Source: Escherichia coli
Lineage (GTDB): Bacteria; Pseudomonadota; Gammaproteobacteria; Enterobacterales; Enterobacteriaceae
DNA: 64,000 nucleotides
Assembly (NCBI RefSeq): GCF_003334335.1
Contig: NZ_QOWQ01000019.1
Strand: one strand, 5' to 3'
The notes under the pieces: generated by a model
Database searches by the model: none
Seen by the model: only the letters and a program-made list of their open reading frames with translations
Told to the model about the DNA's origin: nothing
Made by a program: the position numbers and the translations under genes
Part shown: positions 16,640 to 43,240 of the stretch, one piece after another
Layout of the letters: every line of letters begins with the position of its first letter
How positions within the stretch are numbered: the first letter of the stretch is position 1

Positions 16640-17545
16640 ATGAACCCCGCAGTGGATAATGAGTTTCAGCAATGGCTTTCCCAAATCAATCAGGTATGCG
16701 GAAATTTTACCGGACGCCTGCTGACTGAGCGTTACACGGGTGTACTGGACACGCATTTTGCCAAAGGACTAAAGCTGAGTACCGTGACAACCAGCGGGGT
16801 GAATTTATCCCGCACCTGGCAGGAAGTAAAAGGCAGCGACGATGCCTGGTTTTACACCGTTTTTCAGCTTAGTGGTCAGGCAATAATGGAGCAGGATGAG
16901 CGTCAGGTGCAGATTGGCGCTGGCGATATTACGTTACTCGATGCCTCACGCCCCTGTTCGCTTTACTGGCAGGAGTCTTCTAAACAGATTTCATTACTTT
17001 TGCCACGCACTCTGCTGGAACAATATTTTCCCCATCAAAAACCTGTCTGCGCAGAAAGACTGGACGCTGACTTACCCATGGTGCAACTCAGTCATCGCCT
17101 GTTACAGGAGAGCATGAATAATCCGGCACTTTCTGAAACAGAAAGTGAAGCTGCGCTACAGGCGATGGTGTGTCTGCTGCGCCCGGTACTTCATCAGCGG
17201 GAATCTGTTCAACCTCGTCGTGAACGTCAGTTTCAAAAAGTGGTTACGTTGATAGACGATAATATTCGCGAAGAGATATTACGCCCGGAGTGGATAGCCG
17301 GAGAGACAGGTATGTCAGTACGTAGTTTGTACCGAATGTTTGCCGATAAAGGTTTGGTAGTCGCGCAATATATTCGTAACCGTCGTCTCGATTTTTGTGC
17401 AGATGCGATTCGCCATGCCGCAGATGATGAAAAACTGGCAGGCATCGGCTTTCATTGGGGATTTTCTGACCAGAGTCATTTTTCAACGGTATTTAAGCAA
17501 CGCTTTGGGATGACGCCAGGCGAGTATCGACGTAAATTCCGCTAA
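16640..17545 (+). CDS. feaR: FeaR, AraC-family transcriptional activator of tynA/feaB
   Basis: The 301-aa ORF has a C-terminal AraC helix-turn-helix signature (GFSDQSHFSTVFKQRFGMTPGEYRR). Confidence 0.9.
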   Translation: MNPAVDNEFQQWLSQINQVCGNFTGRLLTERYTGVLDTHFAKGLKLSTVTTSGVNLSRTWQEVKGSDDAWFYTVFQLSGQAIMEQDERQVQIGAGDITLLDASRPCSLYWQESSKQISLLLPRTLLEQYFPHQKPVCAERLDADLPMVQLSHRLLQESMNNPALSETESEAALQAMVCLLRPVLHQRESVQPRRERQFQKVVTLIDDNIREEILRPEWIAGETGMSVRSLYRMFADKGLVVAQYIRNRRLDFCADAIRHAADDEKLAGIGFHWGFSDQSHFSTVFKQRFGMTPGEYRRKFR

Positions 17546-17582
17546 CTAATTGGCGTTGCATGTACTGCAACGCCAATTAGTT
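17544..17582. terminator. Perfect 17-bp-stem palindrome between convergent feaR and ydbL; putative bidirectional terminator
   Basis: aactaattggcgttgca-tgtac-tgcaacgccaattagtt, immediately after the feaR stop at 17543-17545. Confidence 0.5.
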
Positions 17583-17716
17583 AAAACAGATATTTGACTA
17601 TGCATTTTTCAGGGCAAAAGGCAATTTGACAGGAGTTTTTGAATATTCACCTTGTTTCAGGAAAATAGATCAATCGCCTTCTCCTGTAGCGTTATCCCGA
17701 TATTGCGGTTTTGCTA

Positions 17717-18043
17717 TTAAAATTTTCGCACCCATTTACCGTTTATCCCTTGTACATATTCCCCCGGTTTGGCCCGAGCTACGAGCTTTTGCCCGGCGAG
17801 TTTCGCGATATCATCTACCGACACATTATTTTGCTTTGCCAGTTGTTGGTAACTCGCTTTACGTTCGGCATTAATGTCGGCTACTAATTTCTCTGTTTCA
17901 GCATCCGTTTTCAGCGCAACCAGATAACCGTAAAATGTTTCACCTACCCGCCCCTGAGTTCTGGCTTCATCCAGAGTCAATGCCATTACATTGCTGCTTA
18001 CCAGCCCAACAAGAAACGCACAAAGAAGTAATGTTTTCTTCAT
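17717..18043 (-). CDS. ydbL: YdbL, small periplasmic protein (DUF1318)
   Basis: ORF with signal peptide MKKTLLLCAFLVGLVSSNVMA; I placed the start at the internal Met that gives 108 aa. Confidence 0.75.
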   Translation of the reverse strand: MKKTLLLCAFLVGLVSSNVMALTLDEARTQGRVGETFYGYLVALKTDAETEKLVADINAERKASYQQLAKQNNVSVDDIAKLAGQKLVARAKPGEYVQGINGKWVRKF

Positions 18044-18050
18044 CATCACC

Positions 18051-18236
18051 TCAGAAAAGATCGCTACGAGTTTCAAGCAGCTCTTCGACATCTTTGTCTG
18101 CCTTGATGATGATCTCATGCTCAATTTTAACGTTCATATTGATAGTGATCGGTTCCTTAGGTGCAGCGACTTCAATGCGAGGCGTACAGCCAACCAGCAT
18201 AAAAGATGACGTCAACGCAGCCAGTAAAATTTTCAT
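18051..18236 (-). CDS. ynbE: YnbE, small lipoprotein
   Basis: 61-aa ORF with a lipobox (MKILLAALTSSFMLVGC); its start overlaps the ydbH stop. Confidence 0.8.
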   Translation of the reverse strand: MKILLAALTSSFMLVGCTPRIEVAAPKEPITINMNVKIEHEIIIKADKDVEELLETRSDLF

Positions 18237-20872
18237 TGTTTTTCCTCACACTCTTTTCCTTGCGGACAGTCATTTCCCGGCAGACGTGCGTTCTGCTCCA
18301 GCCATGCCTGGAGATTATCGCCAAAGCGTAAACTGCGCCACAGCGTAAAAATATTCTCTTCATGATGGTAATTAAGGTTTACCGTACCGCTTTTACCATC
18401 AACGCGACTGGTACCTGTAATGTTGGCCTGCATGGTTAATAAACCGAGATTATCTAAATTAATTTTTGTCGATGAACGGCTAATTTCCATATAGCGCAAC
18501 CAGTTAATTGCTGAACCTGCAGTCATATTGTCTTTTACAACCGCATCCGCAGTGTCTTTATCCAGTCGCAATGTCATCGGCCCGCTATTCGCCAGCCAGC
18601 CATCTTTCACAATCCATTTTTCATTGTTCAGCCATAACGGCAGTGCACCACTAAATGCCCCGGACATGGCGAATTGTTTCGGATTGACGGCGCTAACCAG
18701 TTCGCTGGATGAGAGATTATTCAGCCGCAACAGCGCCGGGTCATGTTGCGGCATACGTAATTGTTTCATCAGTACGTTACCGCCTAACACATCGACGCTA
18801 ACATCAGTCAACAGCAAGGGTTCTTCTTCAGTCCACGGATAACGCCCTTGCAAATCAGCCGTAATATTTTTCGCTGTCACCAGATTAATCACTTCGGCAA
18901 TTCGCAACGTAACGGGGCCGCGAGTCCCCAGATGCCAGGCTCCATCGGCAAAACGGAAAGGCAGGACAAAATCGACACCGTTAACCTGATTATCTGGCAT
19001 CCAGGCACTACCGCCTTTCAACACGCCGTGTCCTCCCGCGCGGAATCCTTGTTCAGGCGCAGCAGAAAATGCAACCTGAGCATACAGTTCACCATCGCGT
19101 AAGTTCATCTTCCAGTCGGGTGGCACCAGCGGCTGGAATACGGTCAGTGATTGTTTAGGCCACCAGGCGTTACCGCGCAGACGAATACCGTCCCAGCGAC
19201 CATTTACCCGAACCGGGCCAATCTCACCAGCATGTAAATCGCCTTTAAAGAGGAAATAGGTAGGATCGCGCCCATCGACGCTAAATTTTAAGGTTGATGG
19301 CGGTAACACACTGCCGCCAGTGAACAGCGTTTGCCCGGCGTCCAGTGACAGCGCGCCGCTAAAGGAGGGATGCTGTGCGTCACGTACCCAGACGATGGGC
19401 TTGTCGAGAATTAATCGCGGCTTTTCTACCGTCATCGTACCGTATTGTAACTGGTCGAAACCGGTGGAGAGATCGGTCAGCGTAATCGTGCTGTCATGCC
19501 ACTCACCTTTTCCTGCGACATCCCAGGTGGCATTCATCGGTGTAAAACTCCCTTTTCCCCAGTAGCGCCACTGCCAGCGGCCAGCGTCAGGGAGAAAATC
19601 ATTCGCCAGCCCATCCATATGCAGCACGAAATCGCCCAGTTCATTTTCATGCGCCTGCAAGATGGCCTGCAAACGTCCGTCAACACCACGTTGGGTGACT
19701 TTTACACCCGCTAAAGGCCAGCGGATTTCATCGATGTCCAGCGAATCGATGACTCTTCCCTTTGAACGAAGTAACGCGCCTGGCTCAAAGGTCAGCGTTG
19801 GGTCAGACAGACTTCCACTTAGCTGCGCAGGTAAACGGGCATATAAAATGAGGTCCGCCTGTTTCGCTTCACCGGTCAGCTGCAGAGGCAGCTGACTGTT
19901 ATCCATGCTTAATTTTCCTGGGCCAAAATTAAGCACCGCGTTGCCCTTACCCGCTTGCCCCTGGGTCAGCACACTCAGTCGTCCGCTGACCAGAGCGTTC
20001 TCAAGCCCTGCCTGCCAGTTGTCGACTTTGACACCCAGTCGGCCACTCAAAGGAAAACCTGCATACGGCCAGCTCCAGCGACCATCGCTTACGGTCAATT
20101 GTTGACGAGTAATTTGCCACGGCAAATCGAGCAACGGATCGCCGTTATCCCGTGCCAGCACGATCAATTGCCCGCTATTTTCCTGCCAGTCCAGCTCGGC
20201 ATCCACCAGTGACGGTTCCTGCGGCAAGTTTAACGTCGCAGTAGCATGCCCACTTACAGGAAGTCCATCCGGCACGAGCGGCATAGCAAATTCCCCCACC
20301 AGTTTTACCGGCGGCTGATTTTCAAACGCGACGACATCCAGTTCGCTGACTGTAAGTTGTTGCCCTTTCAGCTGGCCTTGAAATTTAACTTTTTCGCCCT
20401 GATAACGCAGTTGCTGGATATCAGAGGTTAATGCGAGAGAGAGTTTTCCCTGCCATTCCTGCCAGGGAGAAAAAATCAGTTTATCGATATTGATCCAGGT
20501 GTTAGGCAGCATGGCCTGCCACTGCGCGAGTGTTTTTGGAGCGGCTGGCGATTGCTCCGTCTGCGGCAATTTCGCCAGACAAGCAGAATCAAGTTCTACC
20601 GTGCCGACGTTCAATAACCAGCGGCTGGGATGTGAAAGGCTGGCGTTGGTGATATGCGCAAGCTGACAATCTCCCACCAGATAACGGAGATCGGGAATGA
20701 TTAAACCTTTACGCGTAATGCGTGGGCTTTCATCTAATGCAATACGTGTCCCGAGCGGTAGCCAGATGCCCGCCAGCGTGGGAACCCACAGCCCGAGCGT
20801 CATCAGCAGCGTCAACGGCACAAGAATAATCAGTAATAACAGCGCGAGAACGGCTTTATATTTACCCAGCAT
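18233..20872 (-). CDS. ydbH: YdbH, AsmA-family large envelope protein
   Basis: 879-aa ORF with an N-terminal transmembrane anchor (MLGKYKAVLALLLLIILVPLTLLMTLGLWV) in conserved position upstream of ynbE and ydbL. Confidence 0.85.
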   Translation of the reverse strand: MLGKYKAVLALLLLIILVPLTLLMTLGLWVPTLAGIWLPLGTRIALDESPRITRKGLIIPDLRYLVGDCQLAHITNASLSHPSRWLLNVGTVELDSACLAKLPQTEQSPAAPKTLAQWQAMLPNTWINIDKLIFSPWQEWQGKLSLALTSDIQQLRYQGEKVKFQGQLKGQQLTVSELDVVAFENQPPVKLVGEFAMPLVPDGLPVSGHATATLNLPQEPSLVDAELDWQENSGQLIVLARDNGDPLLDLPWQITRQQLTVSDGRWSWPYAGFPLSGRLGVKVDNWQAGLENALVSGRLSVLTQGQAGKGNAVLNFGPGKLSMDNSQLPLQLTGEAKQADLILYARLPAQLSGSLSDPTLTFEPGALLRSKGRVIDSLDIDEIRWPLAGVKVTQRGVDGRLQAILQAHENELGDFVLHMDGLANDFLPDAGRWQWRYWGKGSFTPMNATWDVAGKGEWHDSTITLTDLSTGFDQLQYGTMTVEKPRLILDKPIVWVRDAQHPSFSGALSLDAGQTLFTGGSVLPPSTLKFSVDGRDPTYFLFKGDLHAGEIGPVRVNGRWDGIRLRGNAWWPKQSLTVFQPLVPPDWKMNLRDGELYAQVAFSAAPEQGFRAGGHGVLKGGSAWMPDNQVNGVDFVLPFRFADGAWHLGTRGPVTLRIAEVINLVTAKNITADLQGRYPWTEEEPLLLTDVSVDVLGGNVLMKQLRMPQHDPALLRLNNLSSSELVSAVNPKQFAMSGAFSGALPLWLNNEKWIVKDGWLANSGPMTLRLDKDTADAVVKDNMTAGSAINWLRYMEISRSSTKINLDNLGLLTMQANITGTSRVDGKSGTVNLNYHHEENIFTLWRSLRFGDNLQAWLEQNARLPGNDCPQGKECEEKQ

Positions 20873-21079
20873 GGGTAGTTAATATCCTGATTTAGCGAAA
20901 AATTAAGCATTCAATACGGGTATTGTGGCATGTTTAACCGTTCAGTTGAAGGTTGCGCCTACACTAAGCATAGTTGTTGATGAATTTTTCAATATCGCCA
21001 TAGCTTTCAATTAAATTTGAAATTTTGTAAAATATTTTTAGTAGCTTAAATGTGATTCAACATCACTGGAGAAAGTCTT

Positions 21080-22069
21080 ATGAAACTCGCCGTTTATAGC
21101 ACAAAACAGTACGACAAGAAGTACCTGCAACAGGTGAACGAGTCCTTTGGCTTTGAGCTGGAATTTTTTGACTTTCTGCTGACGGAAAAAACCGCTAAAA
21201 CTGCCAATGGCTGCGAAGCGGTATGTATTTTCGTAAACGATGACGGCAGCCGCCCGGTGCTGGAAGAGCTGAAAAAGCACGGCGTTAAATATATCGCCCT
21301 GCGCTGTGCCGGTTTCAATAACGTCGACCTTGACGCGGCAAAAGAACTGGGGCTGAAAGTAGTCCGTGTTCCAGCCTATGATCCAGAGGCCGTTGCTGAA
21401 CACGCCATCGGTATGATGATGACGCTGAACCGCCGTATTCACCGCGCGTATCAGCGTACCCGTGATGCTAACTTCTCTCTGGAAGGTCTGACCGGCTTTA
21501 CTATGTATGGCAAAACGGCAGGCGTTATCGGTACCGGTAAAATCGGTGTGGCGATGCTGCGCATTCTGAAAGGTTTTGGTATGCGTCTGCTGGCGTTCGA
21601 TCCGTATCCAAGTGCAGCGGCGCTGGAACTCGGTGTGGAGTATGTCGATCTGCCAACCCTGTTCTCTGAATCAGACGTTATCTCTCTGCACTGCCCGCTG
21701 ACACCGGAAAACTATCATCTGTTGAACGAAGCCGCCTTCGAACAGATGAAAAATGGCGTGATGATCGTCAATACCAGTCGCGGTGCATTGATTGATTCTC
21801 AGGCAGCAATTGAAGCGCTGAAAAATCAGAAAATTGGTTCGTTGGGTATGGACGTGTATGAGAACGAACGCGATCTATTCTTTGAAGATAAATCCAACGA
21901 CGTGATCCAGGATGACGTATTCCGTCGCCTGTCTGCCTGCCACAACGTGCTGTTTACCGGGCACCAGGCATTCCTGACAGCAGAAGCTCTGACCAGTATT
22001 TCTCAGACTACGCTGCAAAACTTAAGCAATCTGGAAAAAGGCGAAACCTGCCCGAACGAACTGGTTTAA
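21080..22069 (+). CDS. ldhA: LdhA, fermentative NAD-dependent D-lactate dehydrogenase
   Basis: 329-aa ORF beginning MKLAVYSTKQYDKKYLQQVNESFGFELEFFDFLLTEKTAKTANGCEAVCIFVNDD, of the 2-hydroxyacid dehydrogenase family. Confidence 0.95.
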   Translation: MKLAVYSTKQYDKKYLQQVNESFGFELEFFDFLLTEKTAKTANGCEAVCIFVNDDGSRPVLEELKKHGVKYIALRCAGFNNVDLDAAKELGLKVVRVPAYDPEAVAEHAIGMMMTLNRRIHRAYQRTRDANFSLEGLTGFTMYGKTAGVIGTGKIGVAMLRILKGFGMRLLAFDPYPSAAALELGVEYVDLPTLFSESDVISLHCPLTPENYHLLNEAAFEQMKNGVMIVNTSRGALIDSQAAIEALKNQKIGSLGMDVYENERDLFFEDKSNDVIQDDVFRRLSACHNVLFTGHQAFLTAEALTSISQTTLQNLSNLEKGETCPNELV

Positions 22070-23138: not shown

Positions 23139-26100
23139 ATGATTACTATTGACGGTAATGGCGCGGTTGCTTCGGTCGCATTTCGCACCAGTGAAGTTAT
23201 CGCCATCTACCCTATTACCCCCAGTTCCACGATGGCAGAACAGGCTGATGCCTGGGCCGGAAACGGCTTAAAGAACGTTTGGGGAGACACACCACGCGTG
23301 GTTGAAATGCAGTCGGAAGCGGGTGCTATCGCTACCGTGCATGGCGCTTTGCAGACGGGTGCCCTTTCAACATCGTTTACGTCATCGCAGGGTTTGCTGC
23401 TGATGATCCCGACGCTGTACAAACTGGCAGGCGAACTAACACCGTTTGTCCTGCATGTAGCGGCACGTACCGTTGCCACACATGCACTCTCTATTTTTGG
23501 CGATCATTCCGACGTTATGGCGGTGCGCCAGACGGGTTGCGCGATGTTGTGTGCAGCAAACGTCCAGGAAGCGCAAGACTTTGCTCTCATTTCGCAAATC
23601 GCGACGCTGAAAAGCCGCGTGCCATTTATTCATTTCTTTGATGGTTTCCGCACGTCCCACGAAATCAATAAAATTGTCCCGCTGGCCGATGACACGATTC
23701 TTGATCTCATGCCGCAGGTCGAAATTGATGCTCATCGCGCCCGGGCACTCAACCCGGAACATCCGGTGATCCGCGGTACGTCCGCCAATCCTGACACTTA
23801 TTTCCAGTCTCGCGAAGCCACCAACCCATGGTACAACGCGGTCTATGACCATGTTGAACAGGCGATGAATGATTTCTCTGCCGCGACAGGTCGTCAGTAT
23901 CAGCCGTTTGAATATTACGGGCATCCGCAAGCGGAACGGGTGATTATCCTGATGGGCTCTGCCATTGGCACCTGTGAAGAAGTGGTTGATGAATTGCTAA
24001 CCCGTGGCGAAAAAGTTGGCGTGCTGAAAGTTCGCCTGTACCGCCCCTTCTCCGCTAAACATTTACTGCAAGCTCTGCCGGGATCCGTACGCAGCGTGGC
24101 GGTACTGGACAGAACCAAAGAACCCGGTGCCCAGGCAGAACCGCTCTATCTGGATGTAATGACCGCACTGGCAGAAGCCTTTAATAATGGCGAGCGCGAA
24201 ACTCTGCCCCGTGTCATTGGTGGGCGCTATGGTCTTTCATCCAAAGAATTTGGCCCAGACTGTGTACTGGCGGTATTTGCCGAGCTCAACGCGGCTAAAC
24301 CGAAAGCGCGCTTTACGGTTGGTATTTACGATGATGTGACCAATCTGTCACTGCCGTTGCCGGAAAACACCCTGCCAAACTCGGCGAAACTGGAAGCCTT
24401 GTTTTATGGCCTTGGTAGTGATGGCAGCGTTTCCGCGACCAAAAACAATATCAAGATTATCGGTAATTCCACGCCGTGGTACGCACAGGGCTATTTTGTT
24501 TACGACTCCAAAAAGGCGGGCGGCCTGACGGTTTCTCACCTTCGAGTGAGCGAACAGCCGATTCGTTCCGCTTATCTCATTTCCCAGGCTGATTTTGTTG
24601 GCTGCCACCAGTTGCAGTTTATCGATAAATATCAGATGGCTGAGCGTTTAAAACCTGGCGGCATTTTCCTGCTCAACACGCCGTACAGCGCAGATGAAGT
24701 GTGGTCGCGCTTGCCGCAAGAAGTTCAGGCCGTGTTAAACCAGAAAAAAGCGCGCTTCTATGTGATTAACGCGGCGAAAATCGCCCGCGAATGTGGCCTG
24801 GCGGCCCGTATTAATACCGTCATGCAGATGGCTTTTTTCCATCTGACGCAAATTCTGCCTGGCGATAGCGCCCTCGCAGAATTGCAGGGTGCGATTGCCA
24901 AAAGTTACAGTAGCAAAGGCCAGGATCTGGTGGAACGCAACTGGCAGGCTCTGGCGCTGGCGCGTGAATCCGTAGAAGAAGTTCCGTTGCAACCGGTAAA
25001 TCCGCACAGCGCCAATCGACCGCCAGTGGTTTCCGATGCCGCCCCTGATTTCGTGAAAACCGTAACCGCTGCGATGCTCGCCGGGCTTGGTGACGCCCTC
25101 CCCGTTTCGGCGCTGCCGCCAGACGGCACCTGGCCGATGGGCACTACGCGCTGGGAAAAACGCAATATCGCCGAAGAGATCCCCATCTTGAAAGAGGAAC
25201 TCTGTACCCAATGTAACCACTGCGTTGCCGCTTGCCCACACTCAGCTATTCGCGCAAAAGTGGTGCCGCCTGAAGCGATGGAAAACGCCCCTGCCAGCCT
25301 GCATTCGCTGGATGTGAAATCGCGTGATATGCGCGGGCAGAAATATGTCTTGCAGGTGGCACCGGAAGATTGCACCGGTTGTAACCTGTGCGTCGAAGTT
25401 TGCCCGGCGAAAGACCGTCAGAATCCAGAGATTAAAGCCATCAATATGATGTCTCGCCTGGAACATGTCGAAGAAGAGAAAATCAATTACGATTTCTTCC
25501 TCAACCTGCCAGAAATCGACCGTAGCAAACTGGAACGTATTGATATTCGTACATCGCAGCTGATTACACCGCTGTTTGAATATTCAGGTGCTTGCTCCGG
25601 TTGTGGCGAGACGCCGTATATTAAATTACTGACTCAGCTCTATGGCGACCGGATGTTGATCGCTAACGCCACTGGCTGTTCTTCAATTTATGGCGGTAAC
25701 CTGCCCTCTACACCGTATACCACCGATGCCAACGGTCGTGGGCCGGCATGGGCGAACTCTCTATTTGAAGATAATGCCGAATTTGGCCTTGGTTTCCGCC
25801 TGACGGTCGATCAACACCGTGTCCGCGTGCTGCGTCTGCTGGATCAATTTGCCGATAAAATCCCGGCGGAATTACTGACGGCGTTGAAATCAGACGCCAC
25901 GCCAGAGGTTCGTCGTGAACAGGTTGCAGCTTTACGCCAGCAACTCAACGATGTTGCCGAAGCACATGAACTGCTACGTGATGCAGATGCACTGGTGGAA
26001 AAATCAATCTGGCTGATTGGTGGTGATGGCTGGGCTTACGATATCGGCTTTGGCGGTCTGGATCATGTATTGAGTTTGACGGAAAACGTCAACATTCTGG

Positions 26101-26663
26101 TGCTGGATACGCAATGCTATTCCAACACCGGTGGTCAGGCGTCGAAAGCGACACCGCTGGGTGCAGTAACTAAATTTGGCGAGCACGGCAAACGTAAAGC
26201 GCGTAAAGATCTTGGCGTCAGTATGATGATGTACGGTCATGTTTATGTGGCGCAGATTTCTCTCGGCGCGCAGCTGAACCAGACGGTGAAAGCGATTCAG
26301 GAAGCGGAAGCGTATCCGGGGCCATCGCTGATCATTGCTTATAGCCCGTGTGAAGAGCATGGTTACGATCTGGCACTCAGCCACGACCAGATGCGCCAAC
26401 TCACAGCTACCGGCTTCTGGCCGCTATATCGCTTTGATCCGCGTCGTGCCGATGAAGGCAAACTGCCGCTGGCCTTGGATTCACGCCCGCCGTCAGAAGC
26501 ACTGGAAGAAACGTTACTTCACGAGCAACGTTTCCGTCGGCTGAATTCGCAGCAGCCAGAAGTGGCAGAACAGTTATGGAAAGATGCTGCAGCTGATTTG
26601 CAAAAACGCTATGACTTCCTGGCACAAATGGCCGGAAAAGCGGAAAAAAGCAACACCGATTAA
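23139..26663 (+). CDS. ydbK: Pyruvate:flavodoxin/ferredoxin oxidoreductase (PFOR)
   Basis: 1174-aa ORF with 4Fe-4S ferredoxin Cys motifs (CTQCNHCVAACP, CTGCNLCVEVCP) and a thiamine-pyrophosphate-binding region (GGDGWAYDIGFGG). Confidence 0.95.
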   Translation: MITIDGNGAVASVAFRTSEVIAIYPITPSSTMAEQADAWAGNGLKNVWGDTPRVVEMQSEAGAIATVHGALQTGALSTSFTSSQGLLLMIPTLYKLAGELTPFVLHVAARTVATHALSIFGDHSDVMAVRQTGCAMLCAANVQEAQDFALISQIATLKSRVPFIHFFDGFRTSHEINKIVPLADDTILDLMPQVEIDAHRARALNPEHPVIRGTSANPDTYFQSREATNPWYNAVYDHVEQAMNDFSAATGRQYQPFEYYGHPQAERVIILMGSAIGTCEEVVDELLTRGEKVGVLKVRLYRPFSAKHLLQALPGSVRSVAVLDRTKEPGAQAEPLYLDVMTALAEAFNNGERETLPRVIGGRYGLSSKEFGPDCVLAVFAELNAAKPKARFTVGIYDDVTNLSLPLPENTLPNSAKLEALFYGLGSDGSVSATKNNIKIIGNSTPWYAQGYFVYDSKKAGGLTVSHLRVSEQPIRSAYLISQADFVGCHQLQFIDKYQMAERLKPGGIFLLNTPYSADEVWSRLPQEVQAVLNQKKARFYVINAAKIARECGLAARINTVMQMAFFHLTQILPGDSALAELQGAIAKSYSSKGQDLVERNWQALALARESVEEVPLQPVNPHSANRPPVVSDAAPDFVKTVTAAMLAGLGDALPVSALPPDGTWPMGTTRWEKRNIAEEIPILKEELCTQCNHCVAACPHSAIRAKVVPPEAMENAPASLHSLDVKSRDMRGQKYVLQVAPEDCTGCNLCVEVCPAKDRQNPEIKAINMMSRLEHVEEEKINYDFFLNLPEIDRSKLERIDIRTSQLITPLFEYSGACSGCGETPYIKLLTQLYGDRMLIANATGCSSIYGGNLPSTPYTTDANGRGPAWANSLFEDNAEFGLGFRLTVDQHRVRVLRLLDQFADKIPAELLTALKSDATPEVRREQVAALRQQLNDVAEAHELLRDADALVEKSIWLIGGDGWAYDIGFGGLDHVLSLTENVNILVLDTQCYSNTGGQASKATPLGAVTKFGEHGKRKARKDLGVSMMMYGHVYVAQISLGAQLNQTVKAIQEAEAYPGPSLIIAYSPCEEHGYDLALSHDQMRQLTATGFWPLYRFDPRRADEGKLPLALDSRPPSEALEETLLHEQRFRRLNSQQPEVAEQLWKDAAADLQKRYDFLAQMAGKAEKSNTD

Positions 26664-26692
26664 ATGCTCTGGATAAGGATTATCCAATTCTA

Positions 26693-26802
26693 AAAAAAAA
26701 GCCCGGACGACTGTTCGGGCTTGTCTTTTTATATGTTGGAAAATCAGTGGCAATGCAATGGCCCAACAGAAAATAAAATCTGTGACAATAAAGGCATATA
26801 AC
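26693..26802 (-). ncRNA. micC: MicC, Hfq-dependent sRNA repressing ompC
   Basis: The reverse complement reads GTTATATGCCTTTATTGTCACAGATTTTATTTTCTGTTGGGCC...AAGCCCGAACAGTCGTCCGGGCTTTTTTT, matching MicC as recalled, in the conserved ompN-ydbK intergenic position; the terminator hairpin also serves ydbK on the + strand. Confidence 0.85.
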
Positions 26803-27029
26803 CCGCGCAGAATAACGTATAGCAAATTAAAAGTATAATTTTTATTTTGTATGTATTATCTTCGATACATTCACCAGACTTATTATCATTTCAGAGGAAT
26901 TATTTGATTAAGGTTTTACTTAAGGCGTAACAAATGATATTTATCGGCTAACTGAACTTCTCCTTTAGGATGTTTTCACTCCCCGAAATGGGGATAAAAG
27001 GCAAATAAAATAACTAAAGGATTTATTCA

Positions 27030-28163
27030 ATGAAAAGCAAAGTACTGGCACTTTTAATTCCTGCCCTGCTCGCCGCAGGTGCTGCACATGCAGCCGAAGT
27101 TTATAATAAAGACGGCAACAAATTAGATCTGTATGGCAAAGTTGATGGCCTGCATTATTTTTCTGATAATTCAGCGAAAGATGGCGACCAGAGCTATGCG
27201 CGTCTGGGTTTTAAAGGCGAAACCCAAATTAACGATCAACTCACTGGCTACGGTCAATGGGAATACAATATTCAGGCAAACAACACTGAATCTTCAAAAA
27301 ACCAGTCATGGACCCGTCTGGCATTTGCCGGGCTGAAATTTGCAGATTACGGTTCTTTCGATTACGGACGTAATTATGGCGTAATGTACGACATCGAAGG
27401 CTGGACCGATATGCTGCCTGAATTTGGCGGTGACTCTTATACCAATGCAGACAACTTTATGACTGGTCGAGCCAATGGCGTCGCGACTTATCGTAATACT
27501 GATTTCTTCGGTCTGGTAAATGGTCTGAACTTCGCGGTGCAGTATCAAGGTAACAACGAAGGAGCCAGTAATGGTCAGGAAGGCACCAACAACGGACGTG
27601 ATGTTCGCCATGAAAACGGTGACGGCTGGGGTCTTTCCACAACATATGATTTAGGCATGGGCTTTAGCGCTGGTGCGGCATACACCTCTTCTGACCGCAC
27701 CAATGACCAGGTTAACCATACTGCGGCGGGTGGTGATAAAGCAGACGCGTGGACTGCTGGGCTAAAATACGATGCTAACAATATTTACCTGGCAACCATG
27801 TATTCAGAAACGCGTAATATGACCCCGTTTGGCGACAGCGATTATGCTGTGGCAAACAAAACCCAGAATTTTGAAGTCACTGCACAGTACCAGTTTGATT
27901 TTGGTCTGCGTCCGGCAGTCTCTTTCCTGATGTCTAAAGGCCGTGACCTGCACGCTGCGGGTGGTGCAGACAACCCGGCAGGTGTTGATGATAAAGATCT
28001 GGTTAAATACGCCGATATTGGCGCGACTTACTATTTCAATAAAAACATGTCCACCTACGTTGACTATAAAATCAACCTGTTGGATGAAGATGACAGCTTC
28101 TACGCTGCCAATGGCATCTCTACCGATGATATTGTCGCTTTAGGTCTGGTTTATCAGTTCTAA
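27030..28163 (+). CDS. ompN: OmpN, OmpC/OmpF-family general porin
   Basis: 377-aa ORF with signal peptide [21 protein letters not shown] and a porin C-terminus ending LVYQF. Confidence 0.9.
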
Positions 28164-28172
28164 ATCCTCCTG

Positions 28173-28196
28173 CCCGCTGTTATGGCGGGCTTTTTC
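28173..28196 (+). terminator. Intrinsic terminator after ompN
   Basis: gcccgc-tgttat-ggcgggc followed by ttttt. Confidence 0.7.
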
Positions 28197-28222
28197 TGCT
28201 TATTCTTCCTCCTTTGATCTAA

Positions 28223-28738
<516 letters not shown>

Positions 28739-28745
28739 CACTAAC

Positions 28746-28771
28746 GCCCGCACATTGCTGCGGGCTTTTTG
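28746..28771 (+). terminator. Intrinsic terminator after uspF
   Basis: gcccgca-cattgc-tgcgggc followed by ttttt. Confidence 0.7.
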
Positions 28772-28914
28772 ATTCATTTCGCAAATGTGCTGACATTTTC
28801 CCCTCTAATCCGTACCATACACGCCACAGTTTTTTATATCAGATTTCTTATGCTGGGCGTTCCGGCATGACGCATACTCTTCTGATGCCATATAACGAAT
28901 TGAGTCGCTTTTAA

Positions 28915-29850
28915 ATGTCGCAAAATCAAGAAATTAGTAAGAAAGAACAATACAACCTGAACAAATTACAAAAACGTCTGCGTCGTAACGTGGGCGAAGC
29001 CATTGCTGACTTCAATATGATTGAAGAAGGCGATCGCATCATGGTTTGCCTCTCCGGGGGTAAAGACAGCTATACCATGCTGGAGATTCTGCGCAATTTG
29101 CAGCAAAGCGCGCCAATCAATTTTTCGCTGGTGGCTGTTAACCTCGATCAAAAGCAACCGGGCTTCCCGGAACACGTTCTGCCCGAGTATCTTGAAAAGC
29201 TGGGCGTTGAGTACAAGATTGTTGAAGAGAATACTTACGGTATCGTGAAAGAGAAGATTCCAGAGGGCAAAACCACTTGCTCACTGTGTTCTCGCCTTCG
29301 TCGCGGTATCCTTTATCGTACCGCAACGGAACTGGGGGCGACGAAGATCGCGTTGGGTCACCATCGTGACGATATCCTGCAAACGTTGTTCTTAAATATG
29401 TTCTACGGCGGTAAGATGAAAGGTATGCCTCCGAAACTGATGAGCGATGATGGCAAACATATCGTTATTCGTCCGCTGGCCTACTGCCGCGAGAAAGATA
29501 TTCAGCGATTTGCCGATGCAAAAGCGTTCCCGATTATTCCGTGCAACCTGTGCGGTTCACAGCCTAACCTGCAACGTCAGGTGATTGCTGACATGTTGCG
29601 TGACTGGGATAAACGTTATCCAGGGCGTATCGAGACGATGTTCAGCGCGATGCAGAATGTGGTGCCGTCGCATCTGTGCGATACCAACCTGTTCGATTTC
29701 AAAGGCATCACCCACGGTTCTGAAGTGGTTAACGGGGGTGATCTGGCGTTTGATCGCGAAGAGATCCCACTACAACCGGCGTGCTGGCAGCCAGAAGAAG
29801 ATGAAAATCAGTTGGATGAGTTACGGCTGAATGTGGTTGAAGTGAAATAA
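28915..29850 (+). CDS. ttcA: TtcA, tRNA 2-thiocytidine(32) synthetase
   Basis: 311-aa ORF with PP-loop SGGKDS and CxxC motifs. Its N-terminus ([17 protein letters not shown]) differs from the K-12 TtcA N-terminus as I recall it ([17 protein letters not shown]). Confidence 0.9.
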
Positions 29851-29858
29851 CCAGGATA

Positions 29859-29932
29859 GCGCCCGATGCGCAAGCGTATCGGGCTACTCTTATGGAGGCC
29901 GGATAAGACGCGGCCAGCGTCGCATCCGGCAA
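29859..29932. repeat. REP (repetitive extragenic palindromic) elements between ttcA and dbpA
   Basis: Two imperfect palindromes of REP type: gcccgatgcgcaagcgtatcgggc and gccggataagacgcggccagcgtcgcatccggc. Confidence 0.7.
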
Positions 29933-29978
29933 TCCCGAATAAGATGTTTACTCTTGCACCCGGCAATTCAACATTTCA

Positions 29979-31352
29979 TTATTTTAATAACCGCACCCGG
30001 CACGTTTTTCCTTTAATCTTCCCGCCCTGTAACTGTTTCCATGCTTTATGAGCAACAGCCTGACGGACCGCGACATAGACATGCGCCGGATGCACGGCGA
30101 TTTTGCCAATATCTGCGCCATCAAGCCCGATATCTCCTGTCAGTGCACCTAATACATCACCCGGGCGCATTTTGGCTTTTTTCCCGCCATCGATACACAA
30201 CGTTGCCATTTCTGCTTCCAGCGTCGCAATGGAACTATTAGCTGGCGGCGTTTGCCAGTTAAGTTTTATCTGCAACATGTCAGAAATGATATTGGCCCGC
30301 TGTGCTTCTTCCGGAGCACAGAAACTGATCGCCAGACCGCTATTTCCTGCACGAGCTGTACGACCGATGCGATGTACATGAACTTCAGGGTCCCACGCCA
30401 GCTCAAAGTTCACCACCAGCTCAAGCGATTTAATATCCAGACCACGCGCAGCAACATCAGTCGCGACCAGTACACGGGCGCTACCGTTAGCAAAACGTAC
30501 CAGGGTCTGATCGCGATCGCGTTGCTCCAAATCGCCGTGTAATGACAATGCACTTTGCCCTACTTCATTCAGCGCGTCGCAGACAGCCTGGCAATCTTTT
30601 TTGGTATTGCAAAACACCACGCAAGAGGATGGCTGATGCAAGCTTAATAACCGTTGCAACAGAGGAATTTTGCCTTTGCTGGATGTCTCATAAAATTGTT
30701 GTTCAATGGGTGGCAAAGCATCTGTTGAGTCAATTTCAATCGCCAAAGGATCGCGTTGCACTCGTCCGCTGATTGCAGCGATGGCTTCCGGCCAGGTTGC
30801 CGAAAACAGAAGCGTCTGTCGAGATGCAGGCGCAAAACGGATGACATCATCAATGGCATCGCTAAATCCCATATCCAGCATGCGGTCGGCCTCATCCATC
30901 ACCAGCGTATTCAACGCATCCAGTGATACCGTGCCTTTTTGCAGGTGATCCAGCAAACGCCCCGGCGTTGCCACGATAATATGCGGCGCATGTTGCAACG
31001 AATCACGCTGCATACCGAACGGTTGACCACCGCACAACGTCAAAATTTTGGTATTTGGCAGAAAACGCGCCAGCCGACGCAATTCACCTGCCACCTGATC
31101 CGCCAGTTCACGCGTAGGACACAGCACTAAAGCCTGGGTTTGAAATAGCGACGCATCAATTTGCTGTAACAAGCCGAGGCCAAAAGCCGCCGTTTTGCCG
31201 CTGCCGGTTTTCGCCTGCACGCGAACATCTTTTCCGGCAAGGATCGCCGGAAGCGCGGCGGCCTGCACCGGCGTCATGGTTAAATAACCCAACTCATTAA
31301 GGTTCGTGAGTTGGGCGGGAGGCAAAACATTCAGGGTAGAAAAAGCGGTCAC
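29979..31352 (-). CDS. dbpA: DbpA, ATP-dependent DEAD-box RNA helicase specific for 23S rRNA
   Basis: 457-aa ORF with DEAD-box motifs (AKTGSGKT, DEAD, SAT) and a C-terminal RNA-binding domain. Confidence 0.9.
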   Translation of the reverse strand: MTAFSTLNVLPPAQLTNLNELGYLTMTPVQAAALPAILAGKDVRVQAKTGSGKTAAFGLGLLQQIDASLFQTQALVLCPTRELADQVAGELRRLARFLPNTKILTLCGGQPFGMQRDSLQHAPHIIVATPGRLLDHLQKGTVSLDALNTLVMDEADRMLDMGFSDAIDDVIRFAPASRQTLLFSATWPEAIAAISGRVQRDPLAIEIDSTDALPPIEQQFYETSSKGKIPLLQRLLSLHQPSSCVVFCNTKKDCQAVCDALNEVGQSALSLHGDLEQRDRDQTLVRFANGSARVLVATDVAARGLDIKSLELVVNFELAWDPEVHVHRIGRTARAGNSGLAISFCAPEEAQRANIISDMLQIKLNWQTPPANSSIATLEAEMATLCIDGGKKAKMRPGDVLGALTGDIGLDGADIGKIAVHPAHVYVAVRQAVAHKAWKQLQGGKIKGKTCRVRLLK

Positions 31353-31612
31353 AATCTATTCTCGTGGTCATCGACGCAAAGTTAGCAGGCGCGTATCCTC
31401 GCAGATCTACGCTCACGATGCGACAATTTAATCGGTTCTTCATCGGGTGGTGGGTCAGGCATGGGTTGCGGGCGAGGGATCGGATCGGGCACTGGAACAG
31501 GATCGCCAGGAATCGGTTCAGGGACAGGAATTTGCAAATAAATAAGTGTCGTCATATTTCCCTCTGGTCATTGGGTGGACTCTTAAAGGGTAGACGCTGA
31601 TAAATAACAGGC

Positions 31613-31734
31613 AAAAAAAAGCCGACTCATCAAAGTCGGCGTCGTACGAATCAATTGTGCTATGCAGTAATTCAAAAAAGGAAGTAAGACAATATGGAGC
31701 GCAACGCCCATCGCTTGACGTTGCATTCACCTGC
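31613..31734 (-). ncRNA. fnrS: FnrS, FNR-activated Hfq-dependent sRNA
   Basis: The reverse complement reads GCAGGTGAATGCAACGTCAAGCGATGGGCGTTGCGCTCCATATTGTCTTACTTCC...GCCGACTTTGATGAGTCGGCTTTTTTTT (122 nt), in the conserved zntB-dbpA intergenic position. Confidence 0.85.
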
Positions 31735-31769
31735 AAGAGAGATATTGCCCTGAATGGGTAGAGAGTTTA

Positions 31770-31783
31770 TTGACTTCGCTCAA
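31770..31783 (-). promoter_or_regulatory. FNR box (TTGAGcgaaGTCAA) about 42 bp upstream of the fnrS 5' end
   Basis: Matches the FNR consensus TTGAT-N4-ATCAA at class II spacing relative to the inferred fnrS start. Confidence 0.75.
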
Positions 31784-31829
31784 ACTTTGCGGCGTTTTTG
31801 TATACAGACAGCCGGAAAAATTGCTTTTG

Positions 31830-32834
<1,005 letters not shown>

Positions 32835-33067
32835 TTATTTTGTAGTCTAGCCTTCTGGCCCTGTTACGCAACATCTCATCACCCCATTACCCTGAAATGA
32901 TTAATAAAATTCTGTCTAAATTGAATACAAAAAGCAAAATGCTTTTCCGTATACAAACCGTGTGAAGTGTTAAATAGCGTCTATCATTATCAGAATTATC
33001 TGATCATATGACGTGGCTTTTTTGCGATCGGATAGCAACAAAAATTGATAAAAATAACGGGATCTCA

Positions 33068-34300
33068 ATGATTACGCACAACTTCAATACCCTGGACTTA
33101 CTCACCAGTCCTGTCTGGATCGTTTCGCCCTTTGAGGAACAGTTAATTTATGCCAATAGCGCGGCGAAACTGTTGATGCAAGACCTCACGTTTAGTCAGC
33201 TACGAACCGGACCCTATTCCGTCTCCTCACAAAAAGAACTGCCGAAATACCTCTCCGATCTGCAAAACCAACACGATATTATCGAAATCCTCACTGTTCA
33301 GCGTAAAGAAGAGGAAACAGCATTGAGCTGTCGGCTTGTTTTGCGAAAGCTGACAGAAACAGAACCGGTGATTATTTTCGAAGGTATCGAAGCGCCGGCA
33401 ACGCTGGGTTTAAAAGCCAGTCGCTCGGCAAATTATCAGCGCAAAAAACAAGGTTTTTATGCGCGCTTTTTTCTGACTAACTCTGCACCAATGTTGTTGA
33501 TTGACCCGTCACGAGATGGACAAATCGTCGATGCTAACCTCGCCGCGCTCAATTTCTATGGTTATAACCATGAAACGATGTGCCAGAAACATACCTGGGA
33601 AATAAATATGCTCGGGCGTCGCGTCATGCCTATCATGCATGAAATCTCGCATTTACCCGGTGGTCATAAACCTTTGAATTTTGTTCATAAACTGGCGGAT
33701 GGTTCGACTCGTCATGTGCAGACCTATGCCGGACCGATTGAAATTTATGGCGACAAGCTCATGTTATGTATTGTGCATGATATTACTGAGCAAAAACGGC
33801 TGGAGGAGCAGCTGGAACATGCTGCTCACCATGACGCGATGACCGGATTACTGAATCGGCGACAGTTTTATCACATTACGGAACCAGGCCAAATGCAGCA
33901 TCTCGCCATCGCTCAGGATTACAGCTTGTTGCTCATCGACACCGATCGTTTTAAACACATTAACGATCTCTATGGGCATTCTAAAGGTGATGAGGTGTTA
34001 TGCGCCCTCGCCCGCACCCTCGAAAGTTGCGCTCGCAAAGGCGATTTGGTGTTTCGTTGGGGAGGCGAAGAGTTTGTCTTATTGCTACCAAGAACCCCAC
34101 TGGATACCGCGCTTTCGCTGGCTGAAACTATCCGCGTAAGCGTGGCAAAAGTGAGTATTTCGGGCTTACCACGCTTTACCGTCAGCATTGGTGTGGCGCA
34201 TCACGAAGGAAATGAAAGCATCGATGAACTGTTTAAACGCGTTGATGATGCTTTGTATCGGGCGAAAAATGATGGACGCAACCGCGTGCTGGCGGCATAA
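33068..34300 (+). CDS. dgcM: DgcM (YdaM), PAS-GGDEF diguanylate cyclase
   Basis: ORF with PAS domains and a GGEEF active site (VFRWGGEEFVLL); I placed the start at the internal Met MITHNF, giving 410 aa. Confidence 0.85.
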   Translation: MITHNFNTLDLLTSPVWIVSPFEEQLIYANSAAKLLMQDLTFSQLRTGPYSVSSQKELPKYLSDLQNQHDIIEILTVQRKEEETALSCRLVLRKLTETEPVIIFEGIEAPATLGLKASRSANYQRKKQGFYARFFLTNSAPMLLIDPSRDGQIVDANLAALNFYGYNHETMCQKHTWEINMLGRRVMPIMHEISHLPGGHKPLNFVHKLADGSTRHVQTYAGPIEIYGDKLMLCIVHDITEQKRLEEQLEHAAHHDAMTGLLNRRQFYHITEPGQMQHLAIAQDYSLLLIDTDRFKHINDLYGHSKGDEVLCALARTLESCARKGDLVFRWGGEEFVLLLPRTPLDTALSLAETIRVSVAKVSISGLPRFTVSIGVAHHEGNESIDELFKRVDDALYRAKNDGRNRVLAA

Positions 34301-34320
34301 GCCGCGGATGCGTCTCGAGA

Positions 34321-34884
34321 TCAACGACTGCGCTTAGCGTGGCGCTCCCAGTTTTCTTGCTTCGCCTGCGCCGTTTTACGTAGTGCGACGTAACACGCCC
34401 CGCTGCCGCCATGATGCGGTAGCGCGGTGCAATATGCCTGAACATCATCAAATTCGGTCAGCCAGCGCGCCACATAGCTGCGGACAATATTGGCATGCGA
34501 TTTATCATCCCGCCCTTTACCATGAATAATCAGCACGTTACGCAAACCATCCGCCAGGGCTTGTTGAATAAAACTGAACACCATTTTGCGGCACTCTTCC
34601 ACCGGCTGGCGCAAAAGATTCAGGCTCGCCTGTTGCGGATATTTACCACTGCGCAGCTTATCCAGCACCCCATGTTGCAACCCTTCCCGCCGAAACTCCA
34701 GCGGCTGACTTAGTGGGATGATGTCGAGAAATCCGGTGGTGAGGAAATTATCAAGCTGCAGCGTGTCGATACGCTGCGGCGCACGTTGGTTACGCGTTGG
34801 ATGCCAGTGGACATCGGTAGCACGTTTCAGCGGCTGGACATCTTCCATGGCGTCAAGAAACAGCGATTTGTCGTCAAGGTTCAT
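34321..34884 (-). CDS. smrA: SmrA (YdaL), Smr-domain DNA endonuclease
   Basis: 187-aa ORF with an Smr domain (LIIHGKGRD...). Confidence 0.8.
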   Translation of the reverse strand: MNLDDKSLFLDAMEDVQPLKRATDVHWHPTRNQRAPQRIDTLQLDNFLTTGFLDIIPLSQPLEFRREGLQHGVLDKLRSGKYPQQASLNLLRQPVEECRKMVFSFIQQALADGLRNVLIIHGKGRDDKSHANIVRSYVARWLTEFDDVQAYCTALPHHGGSGACYVALRKTAQAKQENWERHAKRSR

Positions 34885-35111
34885 GTTACATCCTCCCGCA
34901 ATTAAGAGCGCGATATGATAACCAGACCGGGTCGGTCCAACAACGTATTACCCAAATTTCCAGTAATAAGTTCCAAATATTGCCGATATTTTAAGCAAAA
35001 TACTTATGCATGATTATTCATTCACGATATTAATAATGTAACTTATATTTTCGTGAAATCTGTCACTGAAGAAAATTGGCAACTAAAGGTTAAAACCGTT
35101 ATAACACAGTC

Positions 35112-35206
35112 ACCGGCGCAGAGGAGACAATGCCGGATTTAAGACGCGGATGCACTGCTGTGTGTACTGTAGAGTCTGGCGGATGTCGACAGACTCTATT
35201 TTTTTA
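35112..35206 (+). ncRNA. mcaS: McaS (IsrA), Hfq/CsrA-binding sRNA
   Basis: ACCGGCGCAGAGGAGACAATGCCGGATTTAAGACGCGGATGCACTGCTGTGTGTACTGTAGAGTCTGGCGGATGTCGACAGACTCTATTTTTTT (95 nt with a terminal hairpin and T-run), in the conserved smrA-abgR intergenic position. Confidence 0.7.
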
Positions 35207-35213
35207 TGCAGTT

Positions 35214-36122: not shown

Positions 36123-36297
36123 GACGCCACCGATAACCGTTATTTATCAGACCAAAGAAACTGGCATCTACTTTAATGCAGATGATTGTGTCAGGGTAAT
36201 TTATGAACGGTTAAAACTGTGAAAAATCAGTTAGTGATAAGTAAAAACTATCGCTACGTGAACCGGGTCACACTTTTTACTGATGACGGGAAAGGTT

Positions 36298-39053: not shown

Positions 39054-39089
39054 CAACAACAACGCAAACACAACAACCGAGGAATGCCC

Positions 39090-40616: not shown

Positions 40617-40626
40617 GAGAGAACGG

Positions 40627-41142
40627 ATGCTGAGATTACTTGAAGAAAAAATTGCCACGCCACTGGGTCCACTGTGGGTGATTTGCGATGAGCAATTTCG
40701 CCTGCGGGCGGTTGAATGGGAAGAGTACAGCGAACGCATGGTGCAGCTGCTGGACATCCATTATCGCAAAGAAGGCTATGAGCGCATTTCTGCCACCAAT
40801 CCAGGCGGTTTAAGCGACAAGCTTCGTGAATATTTTGCCGGTAATCTTAGCATTATTGATACGCTTCCCACTGCTACGGGGGGGACGCCATTTCAGCGCG
40901 AAGTCTGGAAAACACTACGCACTATCCCCTGCGGGCAGGTAATGCATTACGGCCAACTGGCTGAGCAATTGGGCCGTCCTGGCGCGGCGCGTGCCGTTGG
41001 TGCGGCAAACGGATCGAATCCCATCAGCATCGTCGTACCTTGCCATCGGGTTATTGGCCGAAACGGCACCATGACCGGATATGCAGGCGGAGTTCAGCGA
41101 AAAGAGTGGTTATTGCGCCATGAAGGTTATCTTTTGCTGTAA
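40627..41142 (+). CDS. ogt: Ogt, O6-alkylguanine-DNA alkyltransferase
   Basis: 171-aa ORF with the active-site motif PCHRVIG. Confidence 0.9.
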
Positions 41143-41336
41143 ACATTAAACAATTTGTGCCAGCTTGTTCACACTTTTATGTAAAGTTACCCTTAACAAC
41201 TTAAGGGTTTTCAAATAGATAGACATATATTTACATCTAATATCGGAATTCTCTGCTGTTAAGGTTTGCTTAGACTTACTTGCTCCCTAAAAAGATGTTA
41301 AAATTGACAAATATCAATTACGGCTTGAGCAGACCT

Positions 41337-43238: not shown

Positions 43239-43240
43239 AC

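Follow-up and report, generated by a model that had tools for sequence, protein, structure and literature searches.

The ydbH, ynbE and ydbL genes and their products

In the 64,000-nucleotide stretch of Escherichia coli chromosomal DNA analysed here (the window), the ydbH (20872..18233; 879 amino acids), ynbE (18236..18051; 61 amino acids) and ydbL (18043..17717; 108 amino acids) genes follow one another on the minus strand, as deduced from the list of open reading frames and their translations. Their coordinates are the same as those that RefSeq gives for MG1655 and ETEC4073. An earlier, sequence-only reading of this DNA had named the three genes correctly, as verified by family profile matches and by the RefSeq annotation, and had left out the strand. 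The locus is the same as the ydbH-ynbE-ydbL locus of E. coli K-12 (b1381-b1383 region; Kumar, Davis & Ruiz 2024; De'Ath et al. 2026). The window differs from MG1655 by three bases over 9.6 kb, two of them in ydbH, with identical coding-sequence coordinates, and ETEC4073 and MG1655 have identical protein accessions for all three genes. The strain backgrounds of the window and MG1655 differ, the Rac prophage being missing in the window. The locus is present in 5410 of the 5426 complete E. coli genomes.

YdbH matches the NCBIfam profile NF007971 over residues 1-878 (1400.9 bits, for a cut-off of 824) and the Pfam family PF11739 (E=3.6e-291), in keeping with its initial description as an AsmA-like large envelope protein, and its translation begins with a long hydrophobic stretch (about residues 7-40). 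YdbH is probably an inner-membrane-anchored, AsmA-like (repeating β-groove) phospholipid-transport protein; a look-up of solved structures found none for YdbH. The initiation region of ydbH is weak, with an AGGA motif 12 nt from the ATG and a predicted opening energy of 10 kcal/mol.

The proposal that YnbE and YdbL are small lipoprotein or periplasmic partners also holds. YnbE matches Pfam PF13617 (E=3.7e-16) and its translation contains the lipobox L-V-G-C17, followed by a threonine at position +2; the lipobox cysteine column is at least 90% conserved among 41 diverse homologues. We recognize YnbE as the precursor of an outer-membrane lipoprotein, the mature form of which comprises 45 amino acids (pI 4.7). 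YdbL matches Pfam PF07027 (DUF1318; E=2.2e-31), and its residues 22-108 match the PDB entry 28oj_A, "Probable chaperone-like protein YdbL" (E=8.5e-53). Its signal peptide, in which the N-terminal MKKTLLLCAFLVGLVSSNVMA precedes the mature start, is cleaved after Ala21 to leave a mature protein of 87 amino acids (pI 9.3), and these matches identify YdbL as a periplasmic, chaperone-like protein. The NCBIfam profile search returned no match for YnbE or YdbL, whereas Pfam matched both.

The two gene junctions and the coupling of translation

The ydbH stop codon and the ynbE start codon overlap exactly as had been claimed, in the ATGA tetranucleotide at 18236-18233 of the minus strand (ynbE ATG, 18236-18234; ydbH TGA, 18235-18233), i.e., a -4 overlap. 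The Shine-Dalgarno (SD) motif of ynbE, GAGGA (18247-18243, minus strand), lies in the last codons of ydbH (C-E-E), 6 nt 5' of the ynbE ATG, and its predicted duplex with the anti-SD sequence has an energy of -6.2 kcal/mol. This is the geometry expected of a termination-reinitiation pair, namely a same-strand -4 or -1 overlap and an SD motif encoded within the first of the two genes. The pairs studied by Huber in 2019 and 2023 (hyfH-hyfI, astD-astB, menD-menH and ydbH-ynbE) likewise combine a same-strand stop/start overlap with such an SD motif, and ydbH-ynbE was among those tested and found to be strongly coupled.

At the second junction, the ynbE stop codon TGA occupies 18053-18051 (minus strand) and the first base of the ydbL ATG is at 18043. 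The ydbL start had been placed 8 bp after the ynbE stop, a figure that stands when counted from the last base of the stop to the first base of the start; the spacer itself is 7 nt. The ydbL SD, GAGGTGAT (18045..18052, minus strand), overlaps the ynbE stop codon and has a predicted duplex energy of -6.9 kcal/mol with the anti-SD. The ynbE-ydbL junction falls within the very short spacers (-8 to +10 nt) that define termination-reinitiation pairs. Unlike the Huber pairs, it has no overlap (+7 nt) and lies outside the Huber tests, in which spacers of +2 to +14 nt led to variable losses of 5-80% (Huber 2023, PMC10666635). Two alternative in-frame starts of ydbL occur at 18046 (ATG) and 18049 (GTG); we favour the start at 18043 because several genera possess only the +7 ATG.

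Both junctions are widely conserved. In the O157:H7-type allele, the segment has only 82.6% DNA identity, yet both junctions and both SD motifs are unchanged. In our set of 79 species-representative genomes, 72 enterobacterial ydbH/ynbE loci could be measured, as well as 68 ynbE-ydbL spacers. The ydbH/ynbE overlap is kept in 66 of the 72 loci (47 at -4, 7 at -1 and 12 at -8 to -17) although the C-terminal tail of YdbH varies, and the ynbE-ydbL spacer is 4-14 nt long in 62 of the 68. The ynbE SD is kept across genera as GAGGA or AAGGAG and is invariant between the divergent E. coli alleles, while most species have a stop-in-SD design at ydbL (TGAGG, TAGGAG or TAAGGAG). A -4 overlap alone is ordinary in E. 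coli, in which the range of -8..+6 nt takes in 24% of all gene pairs on one strand (Huber 2023, PMC10666635); the arrangement is nonetheless conserved. The relatives from the Oceanospirillales have the same gene order with ydbH-ynbE spacers of 47-104 nt, and the overlap is therefore not needed for the system to exist. An apparent in-frame ydbH-ynbE fusion at three Pectobacterium loci proved to be a tblastn artefact, the alignment having run through a stop codon; three-frame translation revealed a stop and then, with no change of frame, a spacer of 15 nt.

The coupling of ynbE translation to that of ydbH, which the sequence-only reading had deduced from the overlap, is established by published reporter assays on this very pair (Huber 2019, 2023), and Kumar 2024 (PMC11126948) explicitly mentioned the ATGA coupling. 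From these assays and the following lines of evidence, we consider the main alternative to be quite improbable, namely that the three genes are co-transcribed, but with translation of ynbE and ydbL mainly by independent ribosome binding and the overlap and spacer reflecting mere compact packing. First, the ynbE reporter was almost silent (translation extremely low or undetectable) once ydbH translation was stopped early, whereas the ynbE and ydbL SDs, with the duplex energies given above, are good and well spaced enough to suit independent initiation (Huber 2019, PMC6728339, for the reporter). Second, the SD motif was strictly essential for ynbE reinitiation (Huber 2019, PMC6728339). Third, reinitiation at ynbE was strongly distance-dependent and fell when the stop codon was placed farther off (Huber 2023, PMC10666635); the same study reported that -4 overlaps are more frequent in E. 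coli than any other same-strand arrangement, as mere packing would have it. Fourth, the conservation of the overlap in the enterobacterial species, despite the variable YdbH tail, also argues against independent initiation, while the non-enterobacterial relatives, which work with long spacers, speak for it.

A further point on the side of independent initiation is the unusual openness predicted for the region where ynbE translation initiates, both in the window (opening energy 2.9 kcal/mol) and in most species: in 62 of the 79 species, the value ranks within the lowest decile of the species' own background. The -99..+30 fragment around the ynbE start is no more stable than its shuffles (z = +0.73). 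These two results give no support to RNA structure as the cause of the coupling, a structure-blocking idea that had been offered for ynbE (Huber 2019, PMC6728339). With a start predicted to be open and a fragment of no unusual stability, the sequence by itself also permits direct initiation, and strict dependence of ynbE translation on ydbH is argued for by the published reporter data only.

Coupling at the ynbE-ydbL junction is putative; Kumar 2024 (PMC11126948) mentioned it as possible. In the window, codons 42-45 of ynbE can base-pair with the SD and start of ydbL, for which the opening energy is 9.4 kcal/mol. The idea that a conserved hairpin sequesters this start was discarded, since the pairing of UCAUCAUCA (18112-18104) with UGAUGAUGA (18048-18040) seen here is not conserved across genera. 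An Rfam scan found no RNA family match inside the operon. Our search for ribosome-profiling or abundance figures for the three genes found none, with no entries in the supplements of Mori 2021 or Burkhardt 2017.

The probable transcription unit and its flanks

The three genes very probably form a single polycistronic unit on the minus strand, with a promoter and a terminator that we place by inference. They were reported to be co-transcribed (De'Ath 2026, preprint), and the gaps between them are too small for a promoter or a terminator. No terminator-like site was found on the minus strand inside the operon. In the divergent ldhA/ydbH spacer, genomic SELEX located an RpoD-holoenzyme site and a predicted promoter for 'ydbH--ydbL' (Shimada 2014); the corresponding candidate sigma-70 promoter, TTGAAA-15-AAAAAT, is predicted at 20984..21010 (minus strand). 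Our sigma-70 consensus scan of this spacer found nothing on the minus strand at 9 of 12 matches, and this weak SELEX-derived prediction is the sole candidate left there.

An internal promoter in ydbH that would additionally or mainly drive ynbE-ydbL, uncoupled from ydbH, is the least probable of the readings considered: a minus-strand promoter-like site does lie in ydbH (18744..18716), some 480 nt upstream of ynbE, and a Yersinia rfaH mutant listing shows ynbE alone as differentially expressed, but the promoter-like matches are at chance level (5 found, for 5.2 +/- 2.1 expected from shuffles), the SELEX and operon listings give a single unit, the preprint reports co-transcription and, even with such a promoter, ynbE translation would depend on that of ydbH (Huber 2019, PMC6728339).

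Downstream of ydbL, the alignment of the window with ETEC4073 revealed a conserved stretch of 63 nt (17654..17716, minus strand), past which the strains diverge, the window carrying a fea/tynA/paa island that is missing from ETEC4073. A scan of the minus strand downstream of ydbL revealed no canonical intrinsic terminator. At 17542..17584, the feaR stop codon is overlapped by a 19-bp palindrome, near-perfect and with a loop of 5 nt; its region (181 nt) has a folding energy of -56.4 kcal/mol (z = -5.67), a value that 0 of 200 shuffles equalled. This palindrome is possibly a hairpin at which transcripts of the convergent genes feaR and ydbL end in both directions. Its terminator function is put forward as an inference, because neither strand has a following U-tract.

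The YdbH-YnbE complex, its modulator YdbL and the proposed mechanism

The YdbH-YnbE complex that the sequence-only reading had anticipated was demonstrated by in vivo photocrosslinking and genetics in a study which also showed that YnbE multimerises (Kumar 2024, PMC11126948). In P. aeruginosa, where PA5307 (ydbH) adjoins PA5306 (ynbE), YdbH function also requires YnbE, as shown in a tamB yhdP background, and the P. aeruginosa YdbH is very divergent, with 24% identity across a sixth of its length (Sposato-group paper 2025, PMC12447247). As for YdbL, its structure was determined, together with its binding to the C-terminal helix of YnbE through a K45-F61 interface and a 1:1 binding to the YnbE C-terminal peptide in vitro (De'Ath 2026, preprint). 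YdbL is a non-essential, chaperone-like modulator and not a fixed subunit, and its ratio to YdbH and YnbE matters. Earlier publications had already covered how the genes are arranged, their coupling through ATGA and the complex of the proteins; the observation made on the window is correct and not new.

With high confidence, we propose that this locus is a coupled operon in which ynbE reinitiation is tied to ydbH, and which encodes two bridge-building proteins and the modulator YdbL. Ribosomes finishing the poorly initiated ydbH gene would terminate at the TGA within ATGA and reinitiate on the overlapping ynbE ATG, aided by the GAGGA motif inside ydbH. Through this termination-reinitiation, the output of the outer-membrane YnbE would be tied to that of the inner-membrane YdbH. 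The translation of ydbL is probably mixed, combining reinitiation and direct initiation. YnbE would then lengthen the β-groove at the YdbH C-terminus by β-strand augmentation, which would complete a bridge for phospholipids from the inner to the outer membrane; TamB and YhdP are redundant with this bridge. YdbL, needed only in the right ratio, binds the acidic C-terminal helix of YnbE and would limit its self-multimerisation.

TamA-TamB resembles YdbH-YnbE in that its AsmA-like protein of the inner membrane depends on a partner in the outer membrane for spanning the periplasm, and the functions of TamB, YdbH and YhdP are redundant. The partner of TamB is an Omp85 β-barrel, in contrast with the 45-residue lipoprotein YnbE, and TamA-TamB operates without a YdbL-like modulator. 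Three redundant systems, YdbH-YnbE among them, have been proposed to bring phospholipids to the outer membrane of Gram-negative bacteria. The dosage of YdbH, YnbE and YdbL relative to one another is critical for function, an excess of YdbL being lethal in the absence of TamB and YhdP.

What the present analysis adds is modest: a cross-species count of the conservation of the junction geometry, and a pattern of joint loss of ydbL and of the YnbE tail. If ynbE translation were strictly dependent on reinitiation, YnbE should not exceed YdbH; this sits uneasily with a bridge comprising many YnbE per YdbH and would argue against several YnbE stacked on one YdbH. It is with reservation, as a view somewhat less probable than its contrary, that we suggest both that YnbE, on this strict dependence, never outnumbers YdbH, and that YdbL and the C-terminal tail of YnbE make up a co-evolving, dispensable module. 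ydbL is absent beside ynbE in 11 of the 79 species, in about eight lineages, and in 10 of these 11 YnbE also lacks the otherwise near-universal C-terminal ...LF ending. The lineages without an adjacent ydbL include Pectobacterium/Brenneria, Tatumella and Pseudescherichia vulneris.

Gene layout, junctions and protein identity

The three genes ydbH (20872..18233; 879 aa), ynbE (18236..18051; 61 aa) and ydbL (18043..17717; 108 aa) follow one another on the minus strand, as ascertained with the ORF list, the translations and the reverse-strand read-out, and RefSeq annotates the same three CDS with identical coordinates. The 3' end of ydbH reads GAG GAA AAA CAA TGA, and the ynbE start codon is the ATG of the resulting ATGA, which creates a 4-nt overlap with the ydbH stop (18233-18236). 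The sequence-only reading had placed this overlap exactly, leaving the strand unstated; its "8 bp" between ynbE and ydbL holds if one counts from the final base of the stop codon up to the first of the start codon, the actual spacer being 7 nt (ydbL ATG at 18043). A GAGGA motif (18247-18243) lies within ydbH, 6 nt 5' of the ynbE ATG, and the ynbE stop codon TGA (18053-18051) is the opening part of GAGGTGAT, which closely approaches a perfect Shine-Dalgarno sequence.

E. coli K-12 and numerous other strains share the segment at 99.9% identity. Of 5426 complete E. coli genomes, 5410 carry the locus (query: window 17500-21100, which also covers the ends of feaR and ldhA). A few genomes carry two copies of the locus, and five matches fall on plasmid-labelled records of this collection. 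YdbH matches NCBIfam NF007971 (1400.9 bits; cut-off 824) and Pfam PF11739, and has no deposited structure. YnbE is assigned to PF13617 and carries a lipobox, LVGC17, followed by Thr at +2; YdbL matches PF07027, its residues 22-108 corresponding to PDB 28oj ("Probable chaperone-like protein YdbL"). The mature YnbE is acidic (pI 4.7), whereas the mature YdbL is basic (pI 9.3). A 104-aa metagenomic protein (P0035), encoded on a 903-bp contig, combines the PF13617 and PF07027 domains, and could represent either a gene fusion or an artefact of a frameshift.

Translational coupling and the envelope complex

The sequence-only reading had taken these junctions to imply coupled translation, consistent with a stoichiometric envelope complex. 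This interpretation is supported, and both it and the underlying observation are already known from the following published work. First, Huber 2019 (PMC6728339) included ydbH/ynbE among five native E. coli gene pairs, finding "extremely low or undetectable" translation of the ynbE reporter if ribosomes on ydbH were made to stop upstream, and a "strictly essential" Shine-Dalgarno motif. Second, reinitiation at ydbH/ynbE was found to be steeply distance-dependent, and short-distance gene pairs to be enriched for subunits of heteromeric complexes (Huber 2023, PMC10666635). Third, Kumar 2024 (PMC11126948) demonstrated a YdbH-YnbE complex with genetic evidence and in vivo photocrosslinking, explicitly named the ATGA overlap, raised ynbE-ydbL coupling as possible, and reported YnbE to multimerise and YdbL to be non-essential and yet required in the right ratio. 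Fourth, De'Ath 2026 (preprint) solved the structure of YdbL and mapped its binding to YnbE K45-F61, in a 1:1 ratio with the peptide. In P. aeruginosa, YdbH function also needs YnbE (PMC12447247).

As to the initiation signals, that of ydbH is weak (AGGA 12 nt from the ATG; predicted opening energy 10 kcal/mol), that of ynbE combines a good Shine-Dalgarno motif with a very open region (predicted opening energy 2.9 kcal/mol), and that of ydbL has the strongest Shine-Dalgarno motif of the three. The ydbL Shine-Dalgarno and start region UGAUGAUGA (18040-18048, minus strand) is the exact complement of UCAUCAUCA (18104-18112, minus strand), i.e. ynbE codons 42-45 (Ile-Ile-Ile), with a predicted ydbL opening energy of 9.4 kcal/mol. 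The complementarity predicts a hairpin that would be opened by the passage of ribosomes along ynbE; the sequestration occurs in the window's allele, and is not conserved in other genera.

The ynbE initiation region (window 18227-18251, and its counterparts in L004-L083, loci from species-representative genomes) is predicted to be open, i.e. in the lowest decile of the locus's own background, in 62 of 79 species loci, though it lies within the ydbH coding sequence. Furthermore, the ynbE fragment from -99 to +30 is no more stable than its shuffles, and folding therefore gives no reason for a dependence on ydbH. The case for ydbH-ynbE coupling rests on experiment, not on sequence-based folding, and the open start fits poorly with the proposal that ribosomes are kept from initiating directly at ynbE by local structure (Huber 2019, PMC6728339).

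Conservation of the junctions and of the YdbL-YnbE pair

A -4 overlap is by itself ordinary, this being the commonest same-strand distance in E. coli, where 707 of 2,987 same-strand pairs (24%) lie within -8 to +6 nt (Huber 2023, PMC10666635); we therefore tested its conservation. Within E. coli, a divergent allele (O157:H7 and others; about 375 of 5415 genomes), compared as L002 294-810 (O157:H7 TR01) against window 17717-18236, is about 82.6% identical in ynbE-ydbL DNA, with proteins 70% (YdbL) and 90% (YnbE) identical to those of the window. Both Shine-Dalgarno motifs are nonetheless preserved in it without change, as are the 7-nt spacer and the ATGA overlap. Outside its signal peptide, YnbE differs by E52D and E55K, which fall in the YdbL-binding C-terminal helix.

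For other species, an alignment of diverse YnbE homologues was used to scan species-representative genomes, yielding 80 loci, 79 of which were measured by script, with the ydbH-ynbE distance unmeasurable in two located at contig ends. The two genes overlap in 66 of the 72 measurable enterobacterial species (-4, n = 47; -1, n = 7; -8 to -17, n = 12), the remainder having distances of +2, +9 or +15 (n = 6). Yet in Oceanospirillales (L076, L079, L081, L082 and L083; about positions 1500-4200) the spacers are +47 to +104 nt without overlap, so that not every such system has the overlap; the order ydbH-like, ynbE, ydbL is kept there, the upstream ORF (about 770-800 aa) being YdbH-like by Pfam PF11739. 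Of the 68 ydbL-containing loci, 62 have 4-14 nt between ynbE and ydbL, and across species the Shine-Dalgarno sequence of ydbL (TGAGG, TAGGAG or TAAGGAG) usually includes the ynbE stop.

At the level of the locus, ydbL is absent directly downstream of ynbE in 11 of 79 cases (L032, L048, L057, L062, L064, L065, L066, L070, L071, L072 and L075; about positions 4150-4700 in each), which comprise three Pectobacterium, Brenneria, Tatumella, Erwinia endophytica, Pseudescherichia vulneris, Phytobacter massiliensis, two Enterobacter sp. and one MAG. A YnbE terminating in ...LF or ...IF is found in 67 of the 68 loci with ydbL, versus a comparable ending (...VF) in only one of the 11 without it; in the other ten the usual ...LF is lost, YnbE being truncated, extended or rewritten (Fisher's exact p = 8e-11, not corrected for phylogeny). 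The loci without ydbL represent about eight lineages. The joint pattern of ydbL absence and altered YnbE ending fits the published interface between YdbL and the YnbE tail.

Transcription signals and genomic surroundings

The junctions leave no room for a promoter or terminator between the genes, the operon interior has no terminator-like site on the minus strand, and promoter-like matches (5) equal the expectation from shuffles (5.2). Co-transcription of ydbH, ynbE and ydbL is stated by De'Ath 2026. By SELEX, Shimada 2014 placed a site for the RpoD holoenzyme in the ldhA/ydbH spacer, and assigned the predicted promoter TTGAAA-15-AAAAAT to "ydbH--ydbL"; we located this motif at 21010-20984. 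On the other side, no canonical terminator was found 3' of ydbL. Positions 17542-17584, which overlap the feaR stop codon, form a near-perfect palindrome of 19 bp; the region containing it folds much more stably than its shuffles (z = -5.67). In the alignment with ETEC4073, an E. coli strain devoid of the fea/tynA/paa island, the 63 nt following the ydbL stop are common to both, and homology breaks at about 17654, the start of this strain-variable island; the operon 3' end therefore differs between strains.

Elsewhere in the window, ttcA directly follows uspF (28700-28950). The Rac prophage, which separates these genes in K-12 MG1655, is therefore absent from the window. The region spanning this junction (24000-44000) is a single contiguous stretch in 2389 of 5426 genomes. 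Rfam identifies the sRNA genes MicC (26685-26805, minus strand), FnrS (31617-31734, minus strand) and McaS (35112-35207, plus strand).
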